Source of the DNA: a virus
UHGV virus genome: UHGV-0178511
DNA: 35,205 bases
Strand: one strand, 5' to 3'
Shown: piece after piece, positions 4,710-24,883 of the stretch
Numbering within the stretch: the first letter of the stretch is position 1
How the letters are laid out: each line of letters starts with the position of its first letter
Notes under the pieces: generated by a model
Told to the model about the DNA's origin: nothing
Databases searched by the model: none
What the model saw: only the letters and a program-made list of their open reading frames with translations
Program-made: the position numbers and the translations under genes

Positions 4710-5126
4710 TTATACCTCTGAATCAATATCAACCTGGTGGTGAGCAATGGTTTCAACCATGTACCGGATGTGTTCTGCCATGCGCTCCTGAAACTCAACA
4801 TCGTCATCAAACGCACGGGTAATGGCTTTTTTGCTGGCCCCGTGGCGTTGTAAATGATCGATGCAGAGTGATTCAAACAGGTGCTGGGGCAGACCTTTTT
4901 CCATGTCGTCTGCCAGTTCTGCCTCTTTCTCTTCACGGGCGATCTGCTGGTAGTGACGCGTCCAGCTCTGAGCCTCAAGACGATCCTGAATGTAATAAGC
5001 GTTCATGGCTGAACTCCTGAAATAGCTGTGAAAATATCGCCCGCGAAATGCCGGGCTGATTAGGAAAACAGGAAAGGGGGTTAGTGAATGCTTTTGCTTG
5101 ATCTCAGTTTCAGTATTAATATCCAT
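4710..5126 (-). CDS. gam: Lambda Gam, RecBCD inhibitor
   Basis: 138 aa, [55 protein letters not shown]... Confidence 0.95.
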
Positions 5127-5224: not shown

Positions 5225-5357
5225 TTTTTGGGACTCCTGGCTGATTAAGTATGTCGATAAGGCGTTTCCATCCGTCACGTAATTTACGGGTGATTCGTTC
5301 AAGTAAAGATTCGGAAGGGCAGCCAGCAACAGGCCACCCTGCAATGGCATATTGCAT
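5193..5357 (-). CDS. cIII: CIII (FtsH inhibitor, stabilises CII)
   Basis: 54-aa ORF below the track's 60-aa cutoff: [54 protein letters not shown]; ATG at 5357-5355, stop at 5195-5193, overlapping kil. Confidence 0.8.
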   Translation of the reverse strand: MQYAIAGWPVAGCPSESLLERITRKLRDGWKRLIDILNQPGVPKNGSNTYGYPD

Positions 5358-5429
5358 GGTGTGCTCCTTATTTATACATAACGAAAAACGCCTCGAGTGA
5401 AGCGTTATTGGTATGCGGTAACGCCGCGC

Positions 5430-5798
5430 TCAGGCGGCTTTGATAGTCATATCATCTGAATCAAATATTCCTGATGTATCGATATCGGTAATTCTTATTC
5501 CTTCGCTACCATCCATTGGAGGCCATCCTTCCTGACCATTTCCATCATTCCAGTCGAACTCACACACAACACCATATGCATTTAAGTCGCTTGAAATTGC
5601 TATAAGCAGAGCATGTTGCGCCAGCATGATTAATACAGCATTTAATACAGAGCCGTGTTTATTGAGTCGGTATTCAGAGTCTGACCAGAAATTATTAATC
5701 TGGTGAAGTTTTTCCTCTGTCATTACGTCATGGTCGATTTCAATTTCTATTGATGCTTTCCAGTCGTAATCAATGATGTATTTTTTGATGTTTGACAT
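5430..5798 (-). CDS. ea10: Ea10-like early protein
   Basis: 122-aa ORF immediately promoter-distal to cIII, same position and length as lambda ea10. Confidence 0.65.
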   Translation of the reverse strand: MSNIKKYIIDYDWKASIEIEIDHDVMTEEKLHQINNFWSDSEYRLNKHGSVLNAVLIMLAQHALLIAISSDLNAYGVVCEFDWNDGNGQEGWPPMDGSEGIRITDIDTSGIFDSDDMTIKAA

Positions 5799-13820: not shown

Positions 13821-14005
13821 ACGCCACAATTCAAACGATACCAGAGCTTCTTATCCAGACACGAGGCAATCAGACCGAAGTGGCAAGGATGCTTTCCTGC
13901 GCAAGAGGAACAGTGCTCAAGTACAACCGAGACAGCAAAGGCGAGCGTCACGTAATAGTTAACGGCGTCCTGATGGTCAAACAGGGCAAGAGGGGAAGAC
14001 GATGA
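13817..14005 (+). CDS. ninH: NinH-like small DNA-binding protein
   Basis: GNQTEVARMLSCARGTVLKY HTH; resembles lambda NinH. Confidence 0.65.
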   Translation: MNATIQTIPELLIQTRGNQTEVARMLSCARGTVLKYNRDSKGERHVIVNGVLMVKQGKRGRR

Positions 14006-14625
14006 GACTAGAAAGCGTAGCTAAATTTCATTCGCCAAAAAGCCCGATGATGAGCGACTCACCACGGGCTACGGCTTCTGACTCTCTTTCCGGTACTGAT
14101 GTGATGGCTGCTATGGGGATGGCGCAATCACAAGCCGGATTCGGCATGGCTGCATTCTGTGGTAAGCACGAACTCAGCCAGAACGACAAACAAAAGGCTA
14201 TCAACTATCTGATGCAATTTGCACACAAGGTATCGGGGAAATACCGTGGTGTGGCAAAGCTCGAAGGAAATACTAAGGCAAAGGTACTGCAAGTGCTCGC
14301 AACATTCGCTTATGCGGATTATTGCCGTAGTGCCGCGACGCCGGGCGCAAGATGCAGAGATTGCCACGGTACAGGCCGTGCGGTTGATATAGCAAAAACA
14401 GAGCAGTGGGGGAGAGTTGTCGAGAAAGAGTGCGGAAGATGCAAAGGCGTCGGCTATTCAAGGATGCCAGCAAGCGCCGCATATCGCGCTGTGACGATGC
14501 TAATCCCAAACCTTACCCAACCCACCTGGTCACGCACCGTTAAGCCGCTGTATGACGCTCTGGTGGTGCAATGCCACAAAGAAGAGTCAATCGCAGACAA
14601 CATTTTGAATGCGGTCACACGTTAG
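14002..14625 (+). CDS. Q: Late-gene antiterminator Q (lambda type)
   Basis: 207 aa, MRLESVAKFHSPKSPMMSDSPRATASDSLSGTDVMAAMGMAQSQAGF...; recalled as essentially lambda Q. Confidence 0.95.
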   Translation: MRLESVAKFHSPKSPMMSDSPRATASDSLSGTDVMAAMGMAQSQAGFGMAAFCGKHELSQNDKQKAINYLMQFAHKVSGKYRGVAKLEGNTKAKVLQVLATFAYADYCRSAATPGARCRDCHGTGRAVDIAKTEQWGRVVEKECGRCKGVGYSRMPASAAYRAVTMLIPNLTQPTWSRTVKPLYDALVVQCHKEESIADNILNAVTR

Positions 14626-14667
14626 CAGCATGATTGCCACGGATGGCAACATATTAACGGCATAATA

Positions 14668-14696
14668 TTGACTTTTTGAATAAAGTTGGGTAAATT
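14668..14696 (+). promoter_or_regulatory. Late promoter pR' (with Q-binding/qut region)
   Basis: TTGACT, 17-nt spacer, TAAATT; surrounding sequence matches my recollection of lambda pR'. Confidence 0.7.
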
Positions 14697-14702
14697 TGAC
14701 CC

Positions 14703-14896
14703 AACGATGGGTTAATTCGCTCGTTGTGGTAGTGAGATGAAAAGAGGCGGCGCTTACTACCGATTCCGCCTAGTTGGTCACTTCGACGTATCGTCTGGAA
14801 CTCCAACCATCGCAGGCTGAGAGGTCTGCAAAATGCAATCCCGAAACAGTTCGCAGGTAATAGTTAGAGCCTGCACAACGGTTTCGGGATTTTTTA
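14703..14896 (+). ncRNA. 6S-type short late transcript ending at tR'
   Basis: About 194 nt from the predicted pR' start to tR' (aatcccgaaac...gtttcgggat plus TTTTTTAT at 14837-14896), same length as lambda 6S RNA. Confidence 0.6.
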
Positions 14897-15447
14897 TATC
14901 TGCACAACAGGTAAGAGCATTAAAGAACTGGCAAAGAGCTTAACGGTCTGCGAAAGCATTTTTTAGTGGCACAGCTGGCCGGTACAACTGAGTGCTCTTT
15001 CCGGTGTGGTGAATGCGCAGGCTGATGCGCGCAGGAGAGCTTCGGAAGAACAAGGTGCCTGTATACAAGCCGGAGATCAGCGCCGGCCACCACAGCCAAA
15101 TCCACCCAGAGCAAAACCGTTGTTCATCCTTACCATTCCCTCAGTATTTTGGGCTACAACCCTCAGCCCATTTTTTAAAGCGTACTTCCACCAAGAACTA
15201 GACCTAACCAACTCATTGCTGACACTCTGTGGATACGGTTGTCTAGTGCGCTTTAAAAAAGAAAACCCAGCATCAATGGCTGGGCTTCGTGATATGACCG
15301 GCATGTATTGTTGGCGCAATCCACGCCTGATTTGCTCATGAATGCGGTCACGAACAAACCCGTTACAAATCAACCGTAACCCGGATTTGTTCAAGCGACC
15401 ATATCCATAATTCCTAATTTGAACAGATCCCCTTCTGGGGGTAAGAC

Positions 15448-15771
15448 ATGAAGATGCCAGAAAAACATGACCTGTTAGCTGCCATTCTCGCGGCAAAGGA
15501 ACAAGGCATCGGGGCAATCCTTGCGTTTGCAATGGCGTACCTTCGCGGCAGATATAATGGCGGTGCGTTTACAAAAACAGTAATCGACGCAACGATGTGC
15601 GCCATTATCGCCTGGTTCATTCGTGACCTTCTCGACTTCGCCGGACTAAGTAGCAATCTCGCTTATATAACGAGCGTGTTCATCGGCTACATCGGTACTG
15701 ACTCGATTGGTTCGCTTATCAAACGCTTCGCTGCTAAAAAAGCCGGAGTAGAAGATGGTGGAAATCAATAA
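15448..15771 (+). CDS. S: Class I holin S with dual-start motif
   Basis: 107 aa beginning [17 protein letters not shown] (Met1-Lys2-Met3 as in lambda S107/S105). Confidence 0.95.
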
Positions 15772-16231
15772 TCAACGTAAGGCGTTCCTCGATATGCTGG
15801 CGTGGTCAGAGGGAACTGATAACGGACGGCAGAAAACCAGAAATCATGGTTATGACGTCATTGTTGGCGGAGAGCTATTCACTGATTACTCCGATCACCC
15901 TCGCAAACTTGTCACGCTAAACCCCAAACTCAAATCAACAGCAGCCGGGCGTTACCAGCTTCTTTCCCGTTGGTGGGATGCCTATCGTAAGCAGCTTGGC
16001 CTGAAAGACTTCTCTCCGAAAAGCCAGGACGCCGTGGCACTGCAACAGATTAAAGAACGTGGCGCTTTACCGATGATTGATCGCGGTGATATTCGTCAGG
16101 CTATTGACCGTTGCAGCAATATCTGGGCTTCACTGCCGGGGGCTGGTTATGGTCAGTTCGAGCATAAGGCTGACAGTTTGATTGCAAAATTCAAAGAGGC
16201 TGGCGGAACGGTCAGAGAGATTGAGGTATGA
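15755..16231 (+). CDS. R: Endolysin R (lambda-type lytic transglycosylase)
   Basis: 158 aa, [51 protein letters not shown]... Confidence 0.95.
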
Positions 16232-16665
16232 GCAGAGTCACCGCGATTATCTCCGCTCTGGTTATCTGCATCATCGTCTGCCTGTCATGGGCTGTTAATC
16301 ATTACCGTGATAACGCCATCGACTACAAAGAGCAGCGCGATAAGGCCGCATCCACAATTGCTGACATGCAGAAGCGTCAACGTGATGTAGCAGAACTCGA
16401 CGCAATATACACAAAGGAGCTTGCTGATGCTAACGCGACTATCGAAAGTCTCCGTGCTGATGTTTCTGCTGGGCGTAAGCGCCTGCAAGTCGCCGCCACC
16501 TGTGCAAAGTCAACGACCGGAGCCAGCAGCATGGGCGATGGAGAAAGCCCAAGACTTACAGCAGATGCTGAACTCAATTATTACCGTCTCCGAAGTGGAA
16601 TCGACAAGATAACCGCGCAGGTTAACTACCTGCAGGAGTACATCAGGACTCAGTGCCTGAAATAA
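16228..16665 (+). CDS. Rz: Rz inner-membrane spanin
   Basis: N-terminal TM segment ([16 protein letters not shown]) and coiled-coil; follows R with ATGA overlap. Confidence 0.9.
16421..16612 (+). CDS. Rz1: Rz1 outer-membrane lipoprotein spanin embedded in Rz (+1 frame)
   Basis: Lipobox LLGVSAC then Pro-rich [13 protein letters not shown]; entirely within Rz in another frame. Confidence 0.7.
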
Positions 16666-16695
16666 TTTTTTTGCAAATCACAAAGTCCATTTAAT

Positions 16696-16751
16696 GAGCC
16701 TCGCGATGCGGGGCTTTTTGCAATAAATGCGTACCGCAACGCATGTTTTTT
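16696..16751 (+). terminator. Two tandem intrinsic terminators downstream of the lysis cassette
   Basis: gagcctcgc-gat-gcggggct plus TTTTT, then atgcgt-accgca-acgcat plus TTTTTT. Confidence 0.5.
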
Positions 16752-16866
16752 ACACCGAACCTGCCCCTTTGGAATGGGCCTTTGAGGATACCAGTTAGTG
16801 CTGGCGAGCCTCGGTGGGCTGGTTTCCTGTGCGGCAAAGGTTCATTTCAAATGGTAGGTAAACGTT

Positions 16867-17388
16867 ATGAATATCGTGCCACTTAATTACAAAGGTGAAA
16901 TTGTCAGTTTCAACACTGATGGTTGGATCAACGTCACAGGTGTTGCTGAGAGATTTGGGAAACGCATTGATAACTGGATGCGTTTGGCAGAAACGCTTGA
17001 ATACGTTCGTGCTTTAGACGAAGCGTTGACCGGGAAAGAATCTCAAATTTTACATCCCTCACAATCGAGGTATGTAAAAACCAGCAAGGCACGAAAGGAC
17101 AGGGGTGGTGGTACGTGGCTACATCCAAAACTTTCAGTTGCATTTGCCCGTTGGTGTGATGCTCGTTTTGCTGTGTGGTGCGACCTGCACATTGATAGTC
17201 TGCTTCGCGGTGAACTGACTGAGCAGCAGAAATATGAGCAAGCATGTCGCATTCGCGATGACCGTAAATCAAAAGCCAGCAATGGGGCAAGAGAGATGGC
17301 TCGCTGGCGATGGGATAAGCCGGTTATTGAAGCAAATGTCGAGTACTGGCGCGAGCAACTGCAGTTGACTCTCGATATCGCTTGCTGA
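16867..17388 (+). CDS. KilA-N domain protein
   Basis: N-terminal KilA-N-like pattern (FNTDGWINVTGVAERFGKRIDNWMRL...LHPKLSVAFARWCDARF). Confidence 0.65.
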   Translation: MNIVPLNYKGEIVSFNTDGWINVTGVAERFGKRIDNWMRLAETLEYVRALDEALTGKESQILHPSQSRYVKTSKARKDRGGGTWLHPKLSVAFARWCDARFAVWCDLHIDSLLRGELTEQQKYEQACRIRDDRKSKASNGAREMARWRWDKPVIEANVEYWREQLQLTLDIAC

Positions 17389-17734
17389 TGGCAAACGCAA
17401 AACTGCGTTATCGGAAAAATCAAAGCATTACGAGAACTGAGCAACAGCTATCCATTACAAAGCCCATCTACGGGTGGGCTTGATAATGAAACCGTGATTT
17501 ACATCCCCACAATCCGGGTATGTAAAAGATAGTTCAGGCGAGAACAGATTTAACTAAATCTGTGCACCACCAGTTGCGGCAGTACAGCGAAACAACCCAA
17601 GCCAGTAAGTGGGGAAATAACACTGGCAGCCACTGAAAGATGAACCTCCTGCCTTATGGCAAAAAAGATTCTTTGTGGTGGCGGACTGATGGAAAGACAT
17701 CCTAATCAAGCAACCACTCTACAGGGTCATAATT

Positions 17735-18106
17735 ATGAACGACCAGCAAATCGAAAAAGAAATCGTTGAGAAAGGCAAAACGGCACCGCGAGTTACGCCA
17801 GACCATATCGAAGGAATTATTGCTCAGGAGGCATATTTCACAGCAGAGGATGGTGCCTTTGGCAAAGCCATAAAAGCGAAACATACTGGCGGAGAGGTAA
17901 ACTACCAGCCGCACGAATCACTTTCTCTGCTGACGTTCTGCGTCCTGGTGCTGCGCAACGGCTTCACCGTCACCGGAGAGAGTGCCTGTGCAAGTCCGGA
18001 AAATTTTGATGCAGAAATTGGTCGGAAGATTGCCCGGCAGAATGCTGTAAACAAAATCTGGATGCTCGAAGGTTACTTGCTGAAGCAGAAGCTAAGCGAA
18101 CAGTAG
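17735..18106 (+). CDS. Hypothetical phage protein (possibly Sf6 gp66 / N4 gp49-like family)
   Basis: 123-aa ORF with RBS; family assignment is a weak recollection. Confidence 0.45.
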   Translation: MNDQQIEKEIVEKGKTAPRVTPDHIEGIIAQEAYFTAEDGAFGKAIKAKHTGGEVNYQPHESLSLLTFCVLVLRNGFTVTGESACASPENFDAEIGRKIARQNAVNKIWMLEGYLLKQKLSEQ

Positions 18107-18209
18107 TTATTACAAAAGCCATTCCTTACTGAGTGGCTTTGATAATGGCTTATACCCTACACGGGATAACTTAACTGATATCCCTTTTAACGGATAAACG
18201 GAGCCAACA

Positions 18210-18452
18210 ATGGCAGAGATTATTCCCATGACTGAAGAACAGAAATTCCAGTTAGAGATTTACAAACTGGTCATGAACCAGAACGCAGCCGCAGAAGAAG
18301 CATTTCAATTCATTGGCACTGACGAGCTGAAGCTTGAGCTATTCAAAATTCACTTCCAGTCAGGTGGCGCTAATTCAGATATCACGACCCGCACTATCGA
18401 AGCGGTGCGTAAATCGAAGGAAGCGTTAGACCTGTTCACTACCGGAGCATGA
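18210..18452 (+). CDS. Hypothetical protein
   Basis: 80-aa ORF with RBS (aacggag) upstream of ATG. Confidence 0.45.
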   Translation: MAEIIPMTEEQKFQLEIYKLVMNQNAAAEEAFQFIGTDELKLELFKIHFQSGGANSDITTRTIEAVRKSKEALDLFTTGA

Positions 18453-18487
18453 TGCTCAGCCTGAAATAACAACTAAGTGAGATGAAT

Positions 18488-18976
18488 ATGGCAGCACCAA
18501 AGGGCAACCGATTTTGGGAGGCCCGCAGTAGTCATGGGCGAAATCCTAAATTCGAATCGCCTGAGGCGCTGTGGGCAGCTTGTTGTGAATACTTCGAGTG
18601 GGCTGATGATAACCCGCTATGGGAGGGTAAGGTATTTTCATATCAGGGAGAAATAATTAAGGCTAATGTCCCTAAGATGCGAGCCATGACTATTTCAGGA
18701 TTGTGTACCTTCCTTGATATCACCAGGCAAACATGGGGAACCTTCCGGTCAATGGAAGGTTTTTCTGACGTCACATCACGAGCGGAAGACATCATCTACG
18801 ACCAGAAATTCTCTGGCGCAGCCGCTGACCTTCTCAACGCTAACATCATCGCCCGTGATTTGGGCCTCAAAGAGCAGTCGCAAGTTGAAGACGTGACACC
18901 TGATAAGGGAGATCGCGATAAGCGACGCTCTCGTATCAAGGAGCTATTCAACCGTGGAACTGGACGCGATTCTTGA
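18488..18976 (+). CDS. terS: Terminase small subunit (P22 gene 3-like)
   Basis: [46 protein letters not shown]...; 3' end overlaps terL. pac site expected inside but not confidently located. Confidence 0.85.
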
Positions 18977-20453
18977 TAACCTGAGCGACGAAGAGCAAAT
19001 AGAATTGCTCGAGCTACTCGAAGAAGAAGAGAACTACCGGAACACACACCTGCTATATGAATTTACGCCATACAGCAAACAGCGTGAGTTCATCGACGCC
19101 GGGCATGACTATCCAGAGCGCTGTTTTATGGCTGGTAACCAGCTTGGTAAGTCATTTACTGGTGCTGCTGAAGTCGCGTTTCACCTTACCGGGCGTTATC
19201 CGGGCACAAAAGGCTATCCTGCTGATGGTAAATATGGCGGGGAGTGGAAAGGTAAGCGTTTCTATGAGCCTGTTGTCTTCTGGATTGGTGGCGAGACAAA
19301 CGAGACTGTAACCAAAACGACTCAACGCATCCTGTGCGGTCGTATCGAAGAGAATGATGAACCTGGCTACGGTTCCATACCGAAAGAAGACATCATTAGC
19401 TGGAAGAAGTCTCCTTTCTTTCCGAACCTTGTTGATCATCTTCTGGTTAAGCATCACACGGCTGATGGCGTTGAAGATGGCATTTCAATCTGCTACTTCA
19501 AACCATACTCGCAAGGCCGTGCTCGCTGGCAGGGTGACACAATCCACGGCGTGTGGTTTGACGAAGAGCCACCATACAGCATTTATGGCGAAGGTCTTAC
19601 CCGTACCAACAAATACGGGCAATTCTCAATTCTGACGTTTACCCCGCTGATGGGGATGTCTGACGTTGTTACCAAGTTCCTGAAGAACCCCAGCAAGTCG
19701 CAGAAAGTGGTCAACATGACCATCTATGACGCTGAGCACTATACCGACGAGCAGAAAGAGCAAATCATCGCATCCTATCCAGAGCATGAGAGAGAGGCGC
19801 GTGCTCGCGGTATTCCTACGATGGGTAGCGGTCGAATCTTCCAGATACCGGAAGAGACGATTAAGTGTCAGCCGTTCGAGTGTCCGGATCACTTCTACGT
19901 AATTGGCGGGATGGATTTCGGATGGGATCACCCGCAGGCGCAGGTTCAGCTTTGGTGGGATAAGGACGCAGACACAATCTACGTTTCACGCGTGTGGAAG
20001 GCGAAAGAAAAGACAGCCGTTCAGGCGTGGGGAGCTGTTAAATCATGGGCGCATAAAGTGCCAACCGCATGGCCTCATGACGGAAACCAGCATGAGAAGG
20101 GCGGCGGTGAGCAGCTCAAAGGGCAGTATGCAGACGCTGGATTTATGATGTTGCAGGAGCATGCGACATGGCCTGATGGCGGTAACGCTGTGGAGCCTGG
20201 CATCACTGAATTGCGCGACATGATGCTCGATGGTCGCTTCAAAGTATTCAACACCTGTGAGCCATTCTTTGAGGAGTTCCGCCTCTATCACCGTGATGAA
20301 AACGGGAAAATCGTCAAGCTTAACGACGACGTTCTCTCAGCCGTTCGCTATGCATACATGATGCGCCGCTTCGCCAAAATGATGCGCGACATCAAAAAAC
20401 CAAAAGAGAAAAAGATACCAGCCCCAATCAGGCCCATCGCACGGAGAACTTAA
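18954..20453 (+). CDS. terL: Terminase large subunit (P22 gene 2-like)
   Basis: 499 aa, [58 protein letters not shown]... Confidence 0.95.
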
Positions 20454-24847: not shown

Positions 24848-24870
24848 GGGAGCTTCGGCTCCCGTTTTTA
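24848..24870 (+). terminator. Intrinsic terminator/attenuator after the coat gene
   Basis: gggagc-ttcg-gctccc hairpin followed by gTTTTTa, 9 bp after the coat stop. Confidence 0.6.
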
Positions 24871-24883
24871 TCTGGAGACAAGC

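Follow-up and report, generated by a model that had tools for sequence, protein, structure and literature searches.

Stable hairpins between the cistrons of phage mRNAs and boundary sequences between exchangeable phage genes are both familiar. Tuerk et al. reportedly described C(UUCG)G hairpins in the intercistronic regions of phage T4 (in PNAS, 1988), and Newbury et al. are said to have described in 1987 an intercistronic mRNA stabiliser of the repetitive extragenic palindromic (REP) or bacterial interspersed mosaic element (BIME) type at malE-malF. Phage T7 carries RNase III processing signals (R1.1 and others). In lambdoid phages, boundary sequences (the linker idea of Susskind & Botstein; Clark et al. 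2001 for HK620; 'bsq1-7' of Sf6; PMC3029335) are short, near-identical islands at gene boundaries with unrelated flanks, and mosaic joints lie at them. Here we report on two related hairpins, named A and B, in the UHGV virus genome UHGV-0178511, a P22-like (Lederbergvirus-type) temperate phage that is nearly complete in the 35,205-bp window (the whole stretch of DNA analysed). Both lie between co-oriented late genes, in the interval from the lysis genes to the terminase genes. The hairpin itself is undescribed, and it belongs to the familiar kinds named above. With about even probability we read A and B as stable intercistronic mRNA hairpins that may serve as a decay barrier or processing site and would also provide shared homology for cassette exchange.

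The hairpins resemble each of these systems in part. As in T4, UNCG-capped hairpins stand between cistrons of a polycistronic phage mRNA, and hairpin A is of the form C(UACG)G; unlike the T4 type, the family described here adds a sequence-invariant base (AUUA/UAAU with a CA/GA internal loop), and the loop of hairpin B has 6 nt and is not UNCG. As with REP/BIME elements, a stable stem-loop is found right past a stop codon and, by analogy, could shield the upstream message from 3' exonucleases, a parallel extended by Xenorhabdus, in which the hairpin follows the abundantly needed major tail protein gene. Unlike REP, the hairpin is limited to prophage late regions, with 1-2 copies per phage, and its sequence is unrelated. 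The T7 signals share with it the intercistronic position and the upper and lower stems parted by an internal loop; unlike RNase III targets, hairpin A has a helix shorter than ~22 bp, and hairpin B and many relatives are borderline. Lambdoid boundary sequences share the near-identical island, the unrelated flanks and the mosaic joints, and the difference from a plain linker is that the island here is a structured hairpin with covarying stems.

Two hairpins of one architecture

As RNA, A and B share one common architecture, consisting of a lower stem, an internal loop with CA on the 5' side and GA on the 3' side, an upper stem and a terminal loop.

17449-17492, plus strand: hairpin A (fold, covariance-model match and covariation)
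17453-17457 with 17484-17488: lower stem of A, CAUUA/UAAUG
17458-17459 (CA) with 17482-17483 (GA): internal loop of A
17460-17468 with 17473-17481: upper stem of A
17469-17472: loop of A, UACG, with a C-G closing pair
18105-18150, plus strand: hairpin B (fold and covariance-model match)
18105-18112 with 18143-18150: lower stem of B
18113-18114 (CA) with 18141-18142 (GA): internal loop of B
18115-18124 with 18131-18140: upper stem of B
18125-18130: loop of B, CUUACU, not UNCG

The helix thus comprises 16 positions in A (5+2+9) and 20 in B (8+2+10), and 19-21 positions in many relatives. In a repeat search, A was found as the inverted repeat 17453-17488 (arms 17453-17466 and 17475-17488, 14 nt each, 86% complementary) and B as the inverted repeat 18109-18146 (arms 18109-18124 and 18131-18146, 16 nt each, 81% complementary), and the outer parts of A and B also came out as direct repeats. 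The predicted folding energies are -20.6 kcal/mol for hairpin A (z -6.5) and -19.9 kcal/mol for hairpin B (z -5.2), and none of 200 shuffles folded as well in either case. A covariance model trained on A-type relatives, with B-type sequences left out, picked out exactly two sites among the 35,205 bp of the window, both on the plus strand: hairpin A with a score of 69.8 bits and hairpin B with one of 38.2 bits (E 8.8e-7). The minus strand at the locus of hairpin A scored 15.7 bits. A third member after the Rz gene (16677-16690; 16677-16730), suspected from repeat family D2, was rejected by the same model.

The initial annotation had pointed to two related elements with an internal stem-loop, each right after a gene end. 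The repeats, the folds and the covariance model confirm the elements and their stem-loops. The position holds for B, which begins within the stop codon TAG (18104-18106) of the N4-Gp49/Sf6-gp66-family gene (hereafter the Gp49-like gene), so that the AG of the codon belongs to the lower stem; it does not hold for A, which lies 65 nt from the stop codon of the KilA-N gene.

Rfam 15 gave no match at hairpins A and B even at E up to 10, and a literature search with the hairpin sequence strings returned unrelated papers only. The records of Sf6 (including its bsq features), HK620, P22, HK97, epsilon34, Emek and HK544 carry no features over these hairpins. By eye only, none of the IHF, Fur box, CRP, LexA, DnaA box and sigma-70 promoter patterns fits the hairpin flanks or the second motif of the region (motif 2, see below). 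The element is a real, structurally conserved and uncatalogued hairpin of an ordinary kind, that is, stable and placed between genes of one long transcript.

Conservation of the fold across phages and prophages

Members of the hairpin family, which belongs to the late operons of temperate Enterobacterales phages, are about 45-50 nt long. The lower stem has 5-10 pairs including AUUA/UAAU, the internal loop is 2x2 (5'-CA / 5'-GA), the G+C-rich upper stem has 9-10 bp, and the loop has 4-6 nt and is most often UNCG; across a model-fitted alignment the spacing of the half-sites varies, with loops of 3-8 nt. Members were found in P22-like, HK97-like and Stx phages, in Salmonella and Shigella prophages, and also in prophages of Enterobacter, Siccibacter, Morganella and Xenorhabdus. 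In BLAST comparisons with phage records, similarity to Stx phages and several siphoviruses, as well as to 2B8, mEp043 and Oslo, is confined to the A block (17449/17453-17488), and the block 18106/18109-18198 recurs in 106 records. Parts of 17389-18225 match 2676 of the 5426 complete genomes of E. coli. Among the short matches, 18109-18198 is the most frequent, and this block stands isolated in many phages and E. coli prophages.

Forty-one distinct hairpin variants were collected by a pattern scan of one genome per species together with viral loci linked to DUF2560. The genome-scan pattern fixed the flanks ATTACAAA...TTGATAATG, and most of the distant members were found that way. The pattern matches in genomes are bimodal: 27 of 120 fold canonically at -11.9 kcal/mol or better (among them one Enterobacter copy with a single mismatch), and the remaining ~90 are unstructured, come from unrelated taxa and represent chance, so selection by fold has hardly biased the set. 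A looser pattern, TTACAAA N18-34 YTTGATAATG, run on viral contigs gave mostly chance matches, with about 25 of 120 real. In one Enterobacter prophage (L255, Enterobacter sp. kpr-6) two members lie 660 nt apart, at 5060-5109 and 5724-5773; one of these copies has ATTCC in its base instead of ATTAC, which indicates that the flank pattern of the genome scan misses real members.

The stems differ by lineage and their complementarity is kept, as illustrated by AAGCCCAUC/GGUGGGCUU in E. coli and Salmonella, AAGGGUGCU/AGUGCCCUU in Xenorhabdus, AAGGGUAUC/GGAUGCCCUU in Morganella and AAGCGCCUC/GGGGCGCUU in Siccibacter. Among 38 distinct ungapped sequences, 87.9% of the cells are paired, compared with at most 48% in slid controls, and both partners vary in 9 of the 18 pairs. 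Covariation scores 0.310, where shuffles give 0.151 and none of 500 attains the observed value. A wider, model-fitted alignment that adds the B-type sequences and divergent P22/epsilon34/HK97 variants (AUUGCAGAGGCC...GGCCUCGAUAAU) is 88.1% paired (slid controls at most 52%), with 11 pairs changing on both sides. Furthermore, the internal-loop bases C13, A14, G47 and A48 are invariant in 49 of 49 distinct sequences, including sequences that were not retrieved by the flank pattern.

Several features distinguish the strands. All 95 model matches (from 92 related sources) lie on the late-gene strand. G-U pairs are frequent, pair 22-29 being U-G in 27 of the 38 sequences, and these become C-A mismatches on the opposite strand. 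UNCG loops occur in 23 of the 38 sequences, over different stems and in different genera. The covarying stems, the common G-U pairs and the enriched UNCG loops together argue that the fold is selected in the sense RNA. Structure prediction and covariation, which the initial annotation had proposed as a check, thus gave stable folds and covarying stems, and its suggestion of regulatory hairpins is borne out as far as the structure goes, namely a sense-strand fold kept by compensatory changes; a regulatory part is predicted from sequence.

Gene contexts and mosaic junctions

The hairpin usually lies 1-6 nt 3' of the stop codon of the upstream gene, and the genes flanking it are non-homologous between contexts. 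Its neighbours in Xenorhabdus and Morganella are the major tail protein gene (phrog_853, Big_2) on one side and a DUF6246 gene on the other, with a Shine-Dalgarno sequence 4 nt past the hairpin. In Siccibacter, Enterobacter and one viral contig it stands directly 5' of small-terminase genes of two different families, and in other contexts the gene ahead of it is Rz, Rha-like, KilA-N or a small unknown one. Such non-homologous contexts are hard to explain by a relic or by a linker serving recombination alone and fit an element acting between cistrons of a long mRNA.

The lysis-to-packaging interval is highly mosaic: 236 phage records match parts of 16600-18500, and none covers 80% of it. The KilA-N gene was found in 6 of the 122 compared loci. 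Breakpoints were counted from 317 high-scoring segment pairs (HSPs) between 16600-18500 and 122 related loci that had been picked via DUF2560 or the hairpin itself, with the following accumulations.

17442-17453 (5' edge of hairpin A): 65 HSP starts
17559-17579 (start of block C, a conserved block described below): 62 HSP starts
18106-18109 (5' edge of hairpin B): 73 HSP starts
17488-17501 (3' edge of hairpin A): 47 HSP ends
17701-17706 (end of block C): 60 HSP ends

Pairwise comparisons locate the joints more directly. Sf6 and IME10 are without KilA-N, and homology starts exactly at hairpin A. Emek, HK544, HK97, P22 and epsilon34 are without the Gp49-like gene, and in them 17701 joins straight to the hairpin at 18106. 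The missing part is an optional cassette.

17702-18104, plus strand: optional cassette of leader and Gp49-like gene, directly 5' of hairpin B

A and B are therefore direct repeats that bracket an optional spacer, block C and the optional Gp49-like cassette. The hairpin type goes with the downstream sequence and the upstream gene varies. Hybrids that combine an A-type stem with a B-type downstream flank were found in Stx2a_F349 and in two further loci (L158, L192), and they are the product expected from recombination between two direct repeats. A paper on deletions of Sf6 in experimental evolution mentions no deletions at gene 66.

On these sequence comparisons the hairpins are mosaic junctions, at which shared homology would let recombination join different genes. 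Since the same ~36-50 nt are kept in many otherwise unrelated phages, the hairpins also behave as a 'boundary sequence'. The cassette-exchange junctions considered in the initial annotation are upheld by the pile-up of HSP edges at the hairpins, the optional Gp49-like cassette and the hybrid hairpins; comparison with related phages, as it had advised, found the elements recurring in relatives and marking mosaic junctions.

The intergenic region around the hairpins

The gap of 346 bp that had been noted after the KilA-N gene was confirmed, and the non-coding sequence in it and past hairpin B was divided as follows.

17389-17734: gap, 346 bp, 3' of the KilA-N gene
~17489-17567, plus strand: optional spacer with two small hairpins, intergenic motif 2 and 17544-17563
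17498-17527, plus strand: intergenic motif 2, a small hairpin 10 nt 3' of hairpin A, in the optional spacer
17048-17079, plus strand: coding motif 2 in the KilA-N gene, encoding ILHPSQSRYVKT; a 13-nt inverted repeat, 92% complementary
17544-17563, plus strand: third small hairpin, ACAGAUUU-AACU-AAAUCUGU, perfect 8 bp, in the optional spacer
17568-17701, plus strand: block C, conserved and apparently non-coding, 125-135 bp
18147-18198, plus strand: conserved non-coding tail going with hairpin B (fold z -3.8)

The 3' flank of the KilA-N gene (17389-17452) shows no significant structure (z -0.3), and stable hairpins follow one another in a row at 17449-17566 (z -5.6). Some 14 phage records contain the optional spacer (Louie, JEP4, Gally, IME10, Sf6, HK620, HK106 and others), and none of them annotates it. 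It is carried by a minority of relatives and forms a ~57-bp indel relative to HK544, being absent from HK544 and Emek.

Motif 2, which the initial annotation had seen both in the gap and inside the KilA-N coding sequence, is real, with copies at 17499-17527 and 17050-17079: its core CACAATCSRGGTATGTAAAA has 2 matches against 0.00 expected (100 shuffles). Between the two copies there are two substitutions and a 1-nt indel, and motif 2 is known in three sequence variants and two contexts. Distant KilA-N homologues keep the residues of motif 2 (I-L-x-x-R-x-S-G-Y-V-K-T), which identifies the coding copy as the original. Sf6 is without a KilA-N gene, and its spacer copy (L003 1766-1795) is identical to the coding copy at 29 of 30 positions. 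The spacer copy of motif 2 is a 30-nt piece of KilA-N coding sequence, duplicated in a spacer that a minority of relatives carry; we infer that recombination left it there. It is not the second boundary element that had been proposed. It may also be a relic of a second KilA-N gene, with similarity confined to the 30 nt.

Block C is 95-100% identical in P22, epsilon34, HK97, ST64T, BTP1 and many prophages, and it is bounded by recurrent mosaic joints, including one at its 3' end. Its reading as a gene start (ST64T 'orf118') was rejected, the open reading frame being a 38-amino-acid upstream extension of the DUF2560 gene. One relative has a 1-nt insertion in the block, and the variation is without codon periodicity; taken with the nature of the reading frame, this makes block C probably non-coding. 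ST64T 'orf-118' itself (L130, AY052766, 2151-2507) is a DUF2560 gene starting at Met39 (MAEITALTE...), and its annotated start, 38 codons up in block C, is probably too far upstream, judging from these comparisons. The predicted fold of block C is unremarkable on the plus strand (z -0.6) and somewhat better on the minus strand (z -2.8), where a terminator-like hairpin lies at 17666-17645. The Rfam family Proteo-phage-1 (RF03044) matches block C weakly at 17568-17631: the score is 18.7 bits, the gathering score being 42, and several pairs are non-canonical. Eleven related loci gave no such match (E up to 1), and a literature search for 'Proteo-phage-1' returned nothing.

The tail of hairpin B contains GGGATAA/TTATCCC-type half-sites in alternating orientation and a 6-bp hairpin (18163-18168 with 18179-18184) followed by UUUU, up to 18188. 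These repeats could be alternative RNA hairpins or protein-binding sites. Three relatives (L311, L323 and L221) have tandem palindromes 3' of their hairpins, for example TTATCCCCTTGCGGGGATAA and TATCCCCGCAAGGGGATA.

Possible role of the hairpin and alternative explanations

If A and B are intercistronic mRNA hairpins of the proposed kind, they would act post-transcriptionally. In the Q-antiterminated late transcript the hairpin would fold very stably between cistrons, the UNCG-capped upper stem would block 3'-to-5' exonucleases, and an endonuclease, RNase III or RNase E, would most likely attack at the A/U-rich base with the internal loop, so that neighbouring cistrons would gain separate mRNA ends and stabilities. 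RNase III, which prefers intergenic regions within transcripts and accommodates a helix of ~22 bp (PMC6212723), is a candidate enzyme, and RNase E cutting in the AU-rich flanks is an alternative. The invariant CA/GA loop suggests a specific partner. Elsewhere in its late operon, the phage has a C(UUCG)G hairpin 3' of the coat gene.

Several points weigh against this reading. The helices of A and B are borderline for the ~22 bp of RNase III, and a simple exonuclease barrier needs neither the CA/GA loop nor the AUUA/UAAU base. The near-invariance of the flanks is partly imposed by the fixed flanks of the retrieval pattern, and the breakpoint counts are indicative only, given how the loci were picked. 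Moreover, DLP12 and Qin, two prophages of K-12, do not carry the element, so that published RNase maps of K-12 are unusable here. A further proposal, which we regard as rather unlikely, is that a dedicated factor of host or phage recognises the invariant base (AUUA/UAAU with the CA/GA loop); the hairpins would in that case be natural RNA 'insulators' or processing signals, providing each cassette of the late operon with its own mRNA ends and so allowing free exchange of genes among phages. This invariant base is kept around wholly different stems in Escherichia, Morganella and Xenorhabdus phages.

The main rival is that A and B are weak factor-independent terminators or attenuators, which would stop moron transcripts in the lysogen and let Q-modified polymerase pass during lytic growth. 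The G+C-rich stem right after gene ends, the A-rich 5' flank and the partly U-rich 3' flank (UUUGAUAAU in B, UUGAUAAU in A) speak for it, as do the true terminators nearby, after Rz (16698-16722 and 16727-16752) and after the coat gene, which likewise have a G+C-rich stem-loop after a gene and make use of UNCG. Unlike these, A and B are without a U-run: the tails 3' of the G+C stem read UUGAUAAUG (A) and UUUGAUAAUG (B), with just 2-3 consecutive U, and a terminator consensus scan flagged neither hairpin. What is conserved is the specific GAUAAUG and not U-richness, the flanks further out pair and covary as the lower stem, and in Xenorhabdus two tail genes flank the hairpin, with a Shine-Dalgarno sequence 4 nt further on, all of which makes a terminator improbable. 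We give a slightly lower probability still to a recombination linker acting at the DNA level only, a recently spread patch of homology whose hairpin shape has no function of its own. The clustered breakpoints, the hybrid hairpins and the boundary-sequence concept in lambdoid phages are in line with it, and the 95-100% identity of the adjoining non-coding blocks suggests recent spread; a neutral linker, however, would not keep its pairing by compensatory changes across genera, and neither the enrichment of UNCG loops, nor G-U pairs tolerated on one strand only, nor recurrence between tail genes of unrelated phages would be expected of it.

Two other explanations are far less probable. An independent small regulatory RNA encoded in the gap and including the hairpins would agree with the row of stable hairpins at 17449-17566 and with the Proteo-phage-1 match; we nevertheless consider it very improbable, because that match is far from the gathering score and does not recur in relatives, the spacer with two of the hairpins is optional, and a consensus scan, the only search made for such signals, found no promoter-like or terminator-like site on the plus strand in 17389-17734 or beside hairpin B. 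The sites it did find in the region are terminator-like ones on the minus strand, at 17666-17645 and 17800-17781, and one promoter-like site inside the Gp49-like gene, at 17859-17887. The small structured RNA suggested by the initial annotation is accordingly disfavoured: no promoter and terminator bracket the elements, which lie inside the late operon and have no Rfam match. Hardly credible, finally, is a folded single-stranded DNA site or palindromic protein-binding site for a dedicated cassette-capture recombinase. Like integron attC sites, the hairpins are imperfect inverted repeats in which unpaired bases are conserved, they lie where exchangeable genes end, and their strand bias would also fit; unlike attC, they have no R''/R' core (RYYYAAC...GTTRRRY) in the flank sequences read, the lysis-to-terminase interval of the window holds no recombinase gene such as an integrase, and the hairpin also lies between essential tail genes, which are not cassettes. 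The UNCG enrichment points to RNA, and the variable half-site spacing is unfavourable for an operator in duplex DNA.

Genome setting

The genes around the hairpins are arranged as in the following list, with KilA-N, Gp49-like and DUF2560 as the genes between Rz and terminase.

14002-14625, plus strand: Q-like antiterminator gene
15448-15771, plus strand: holin gene
15755-16231, plus strand: endolysin gene
16228-16665, plus strand: Rz gene
16867-17388, plus strand: KilA-N gene, the variable gene 5' of hairpin A
17735-18106, plus strand: coding sequence of the N4-Gp49/Sf6-gp66-family (Gp49-like) gene
18210-18452, plus strand: DUF2560 gene, conserved, 3' of hairpin B and its tail
18482-18976, plus strand: small terminase gene
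18954-20453, plus strand: large terminase gene
from 20454, plus strand: portal gene

The Rz gene is followed by two successive terminator-like hairpins. The first (16698-16722) is GAGCCTCGC-GAT-GCGGGGCTT with T5, and the Emek and HK544 annotations list it as a rho-independent terminator; the second (16727-16752) is ATGCGT-ACCGCA-ACGCAT with T6. In many relatives a B-type hairpin is found directly 3' of the first of them. The C(UUCG)G-capped terminator-like hairpin 3' of the coat gene (~24850-24875), GGGAGC-UUCG-GCUCCC followed by UUUUU, is the counterpart of 't coat' annotated in Sf6.

Between the Q-like and holin genes, the 822 bp at 14626-15447 are without a convincing open reading frame. 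On the minus strand, 15288-15262 is a strong terminator-like hairpin of 10 pairs with a T-run; no Rfam family reaches threshold in this stretch. In prophages of enterohaemorrhagic E. coli, convergent pairs of small RNAs of the AgvB/AsxR type have been reported between Q and the lysis genes (PMC4104026). The prophage small RNAs AgvB/AsxR and the Pas small RNAs were rejected as candidates for the hairpins, since they map between Q and the lysis genes and not here. The sole Rfam family above its gathering score in the whole window is the lambda cIII thermoregulator (RF01804; Lambda_thermo), at 5312-5370 on the minus strand with 88.5 bits.

Implications

If the role proposed for the hairpin is true, it would be a widespread uncatalogued RNA motif, with about half of the complete E. 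coli genomes matching parts of the region. A covariance model of the hairpin would improve the annotation of the accessory region between lysis and terminase genes, which receives accessory (moron) genes such as anti-CRISPR, KilA-N and Rha. On the same premise, the hairpin would be a concrete, testable case of a 'boundary sequence' conserved for a functional reason, and it would link lambdoid gene exchange at sharp joints with differential expression within the long late transcript.

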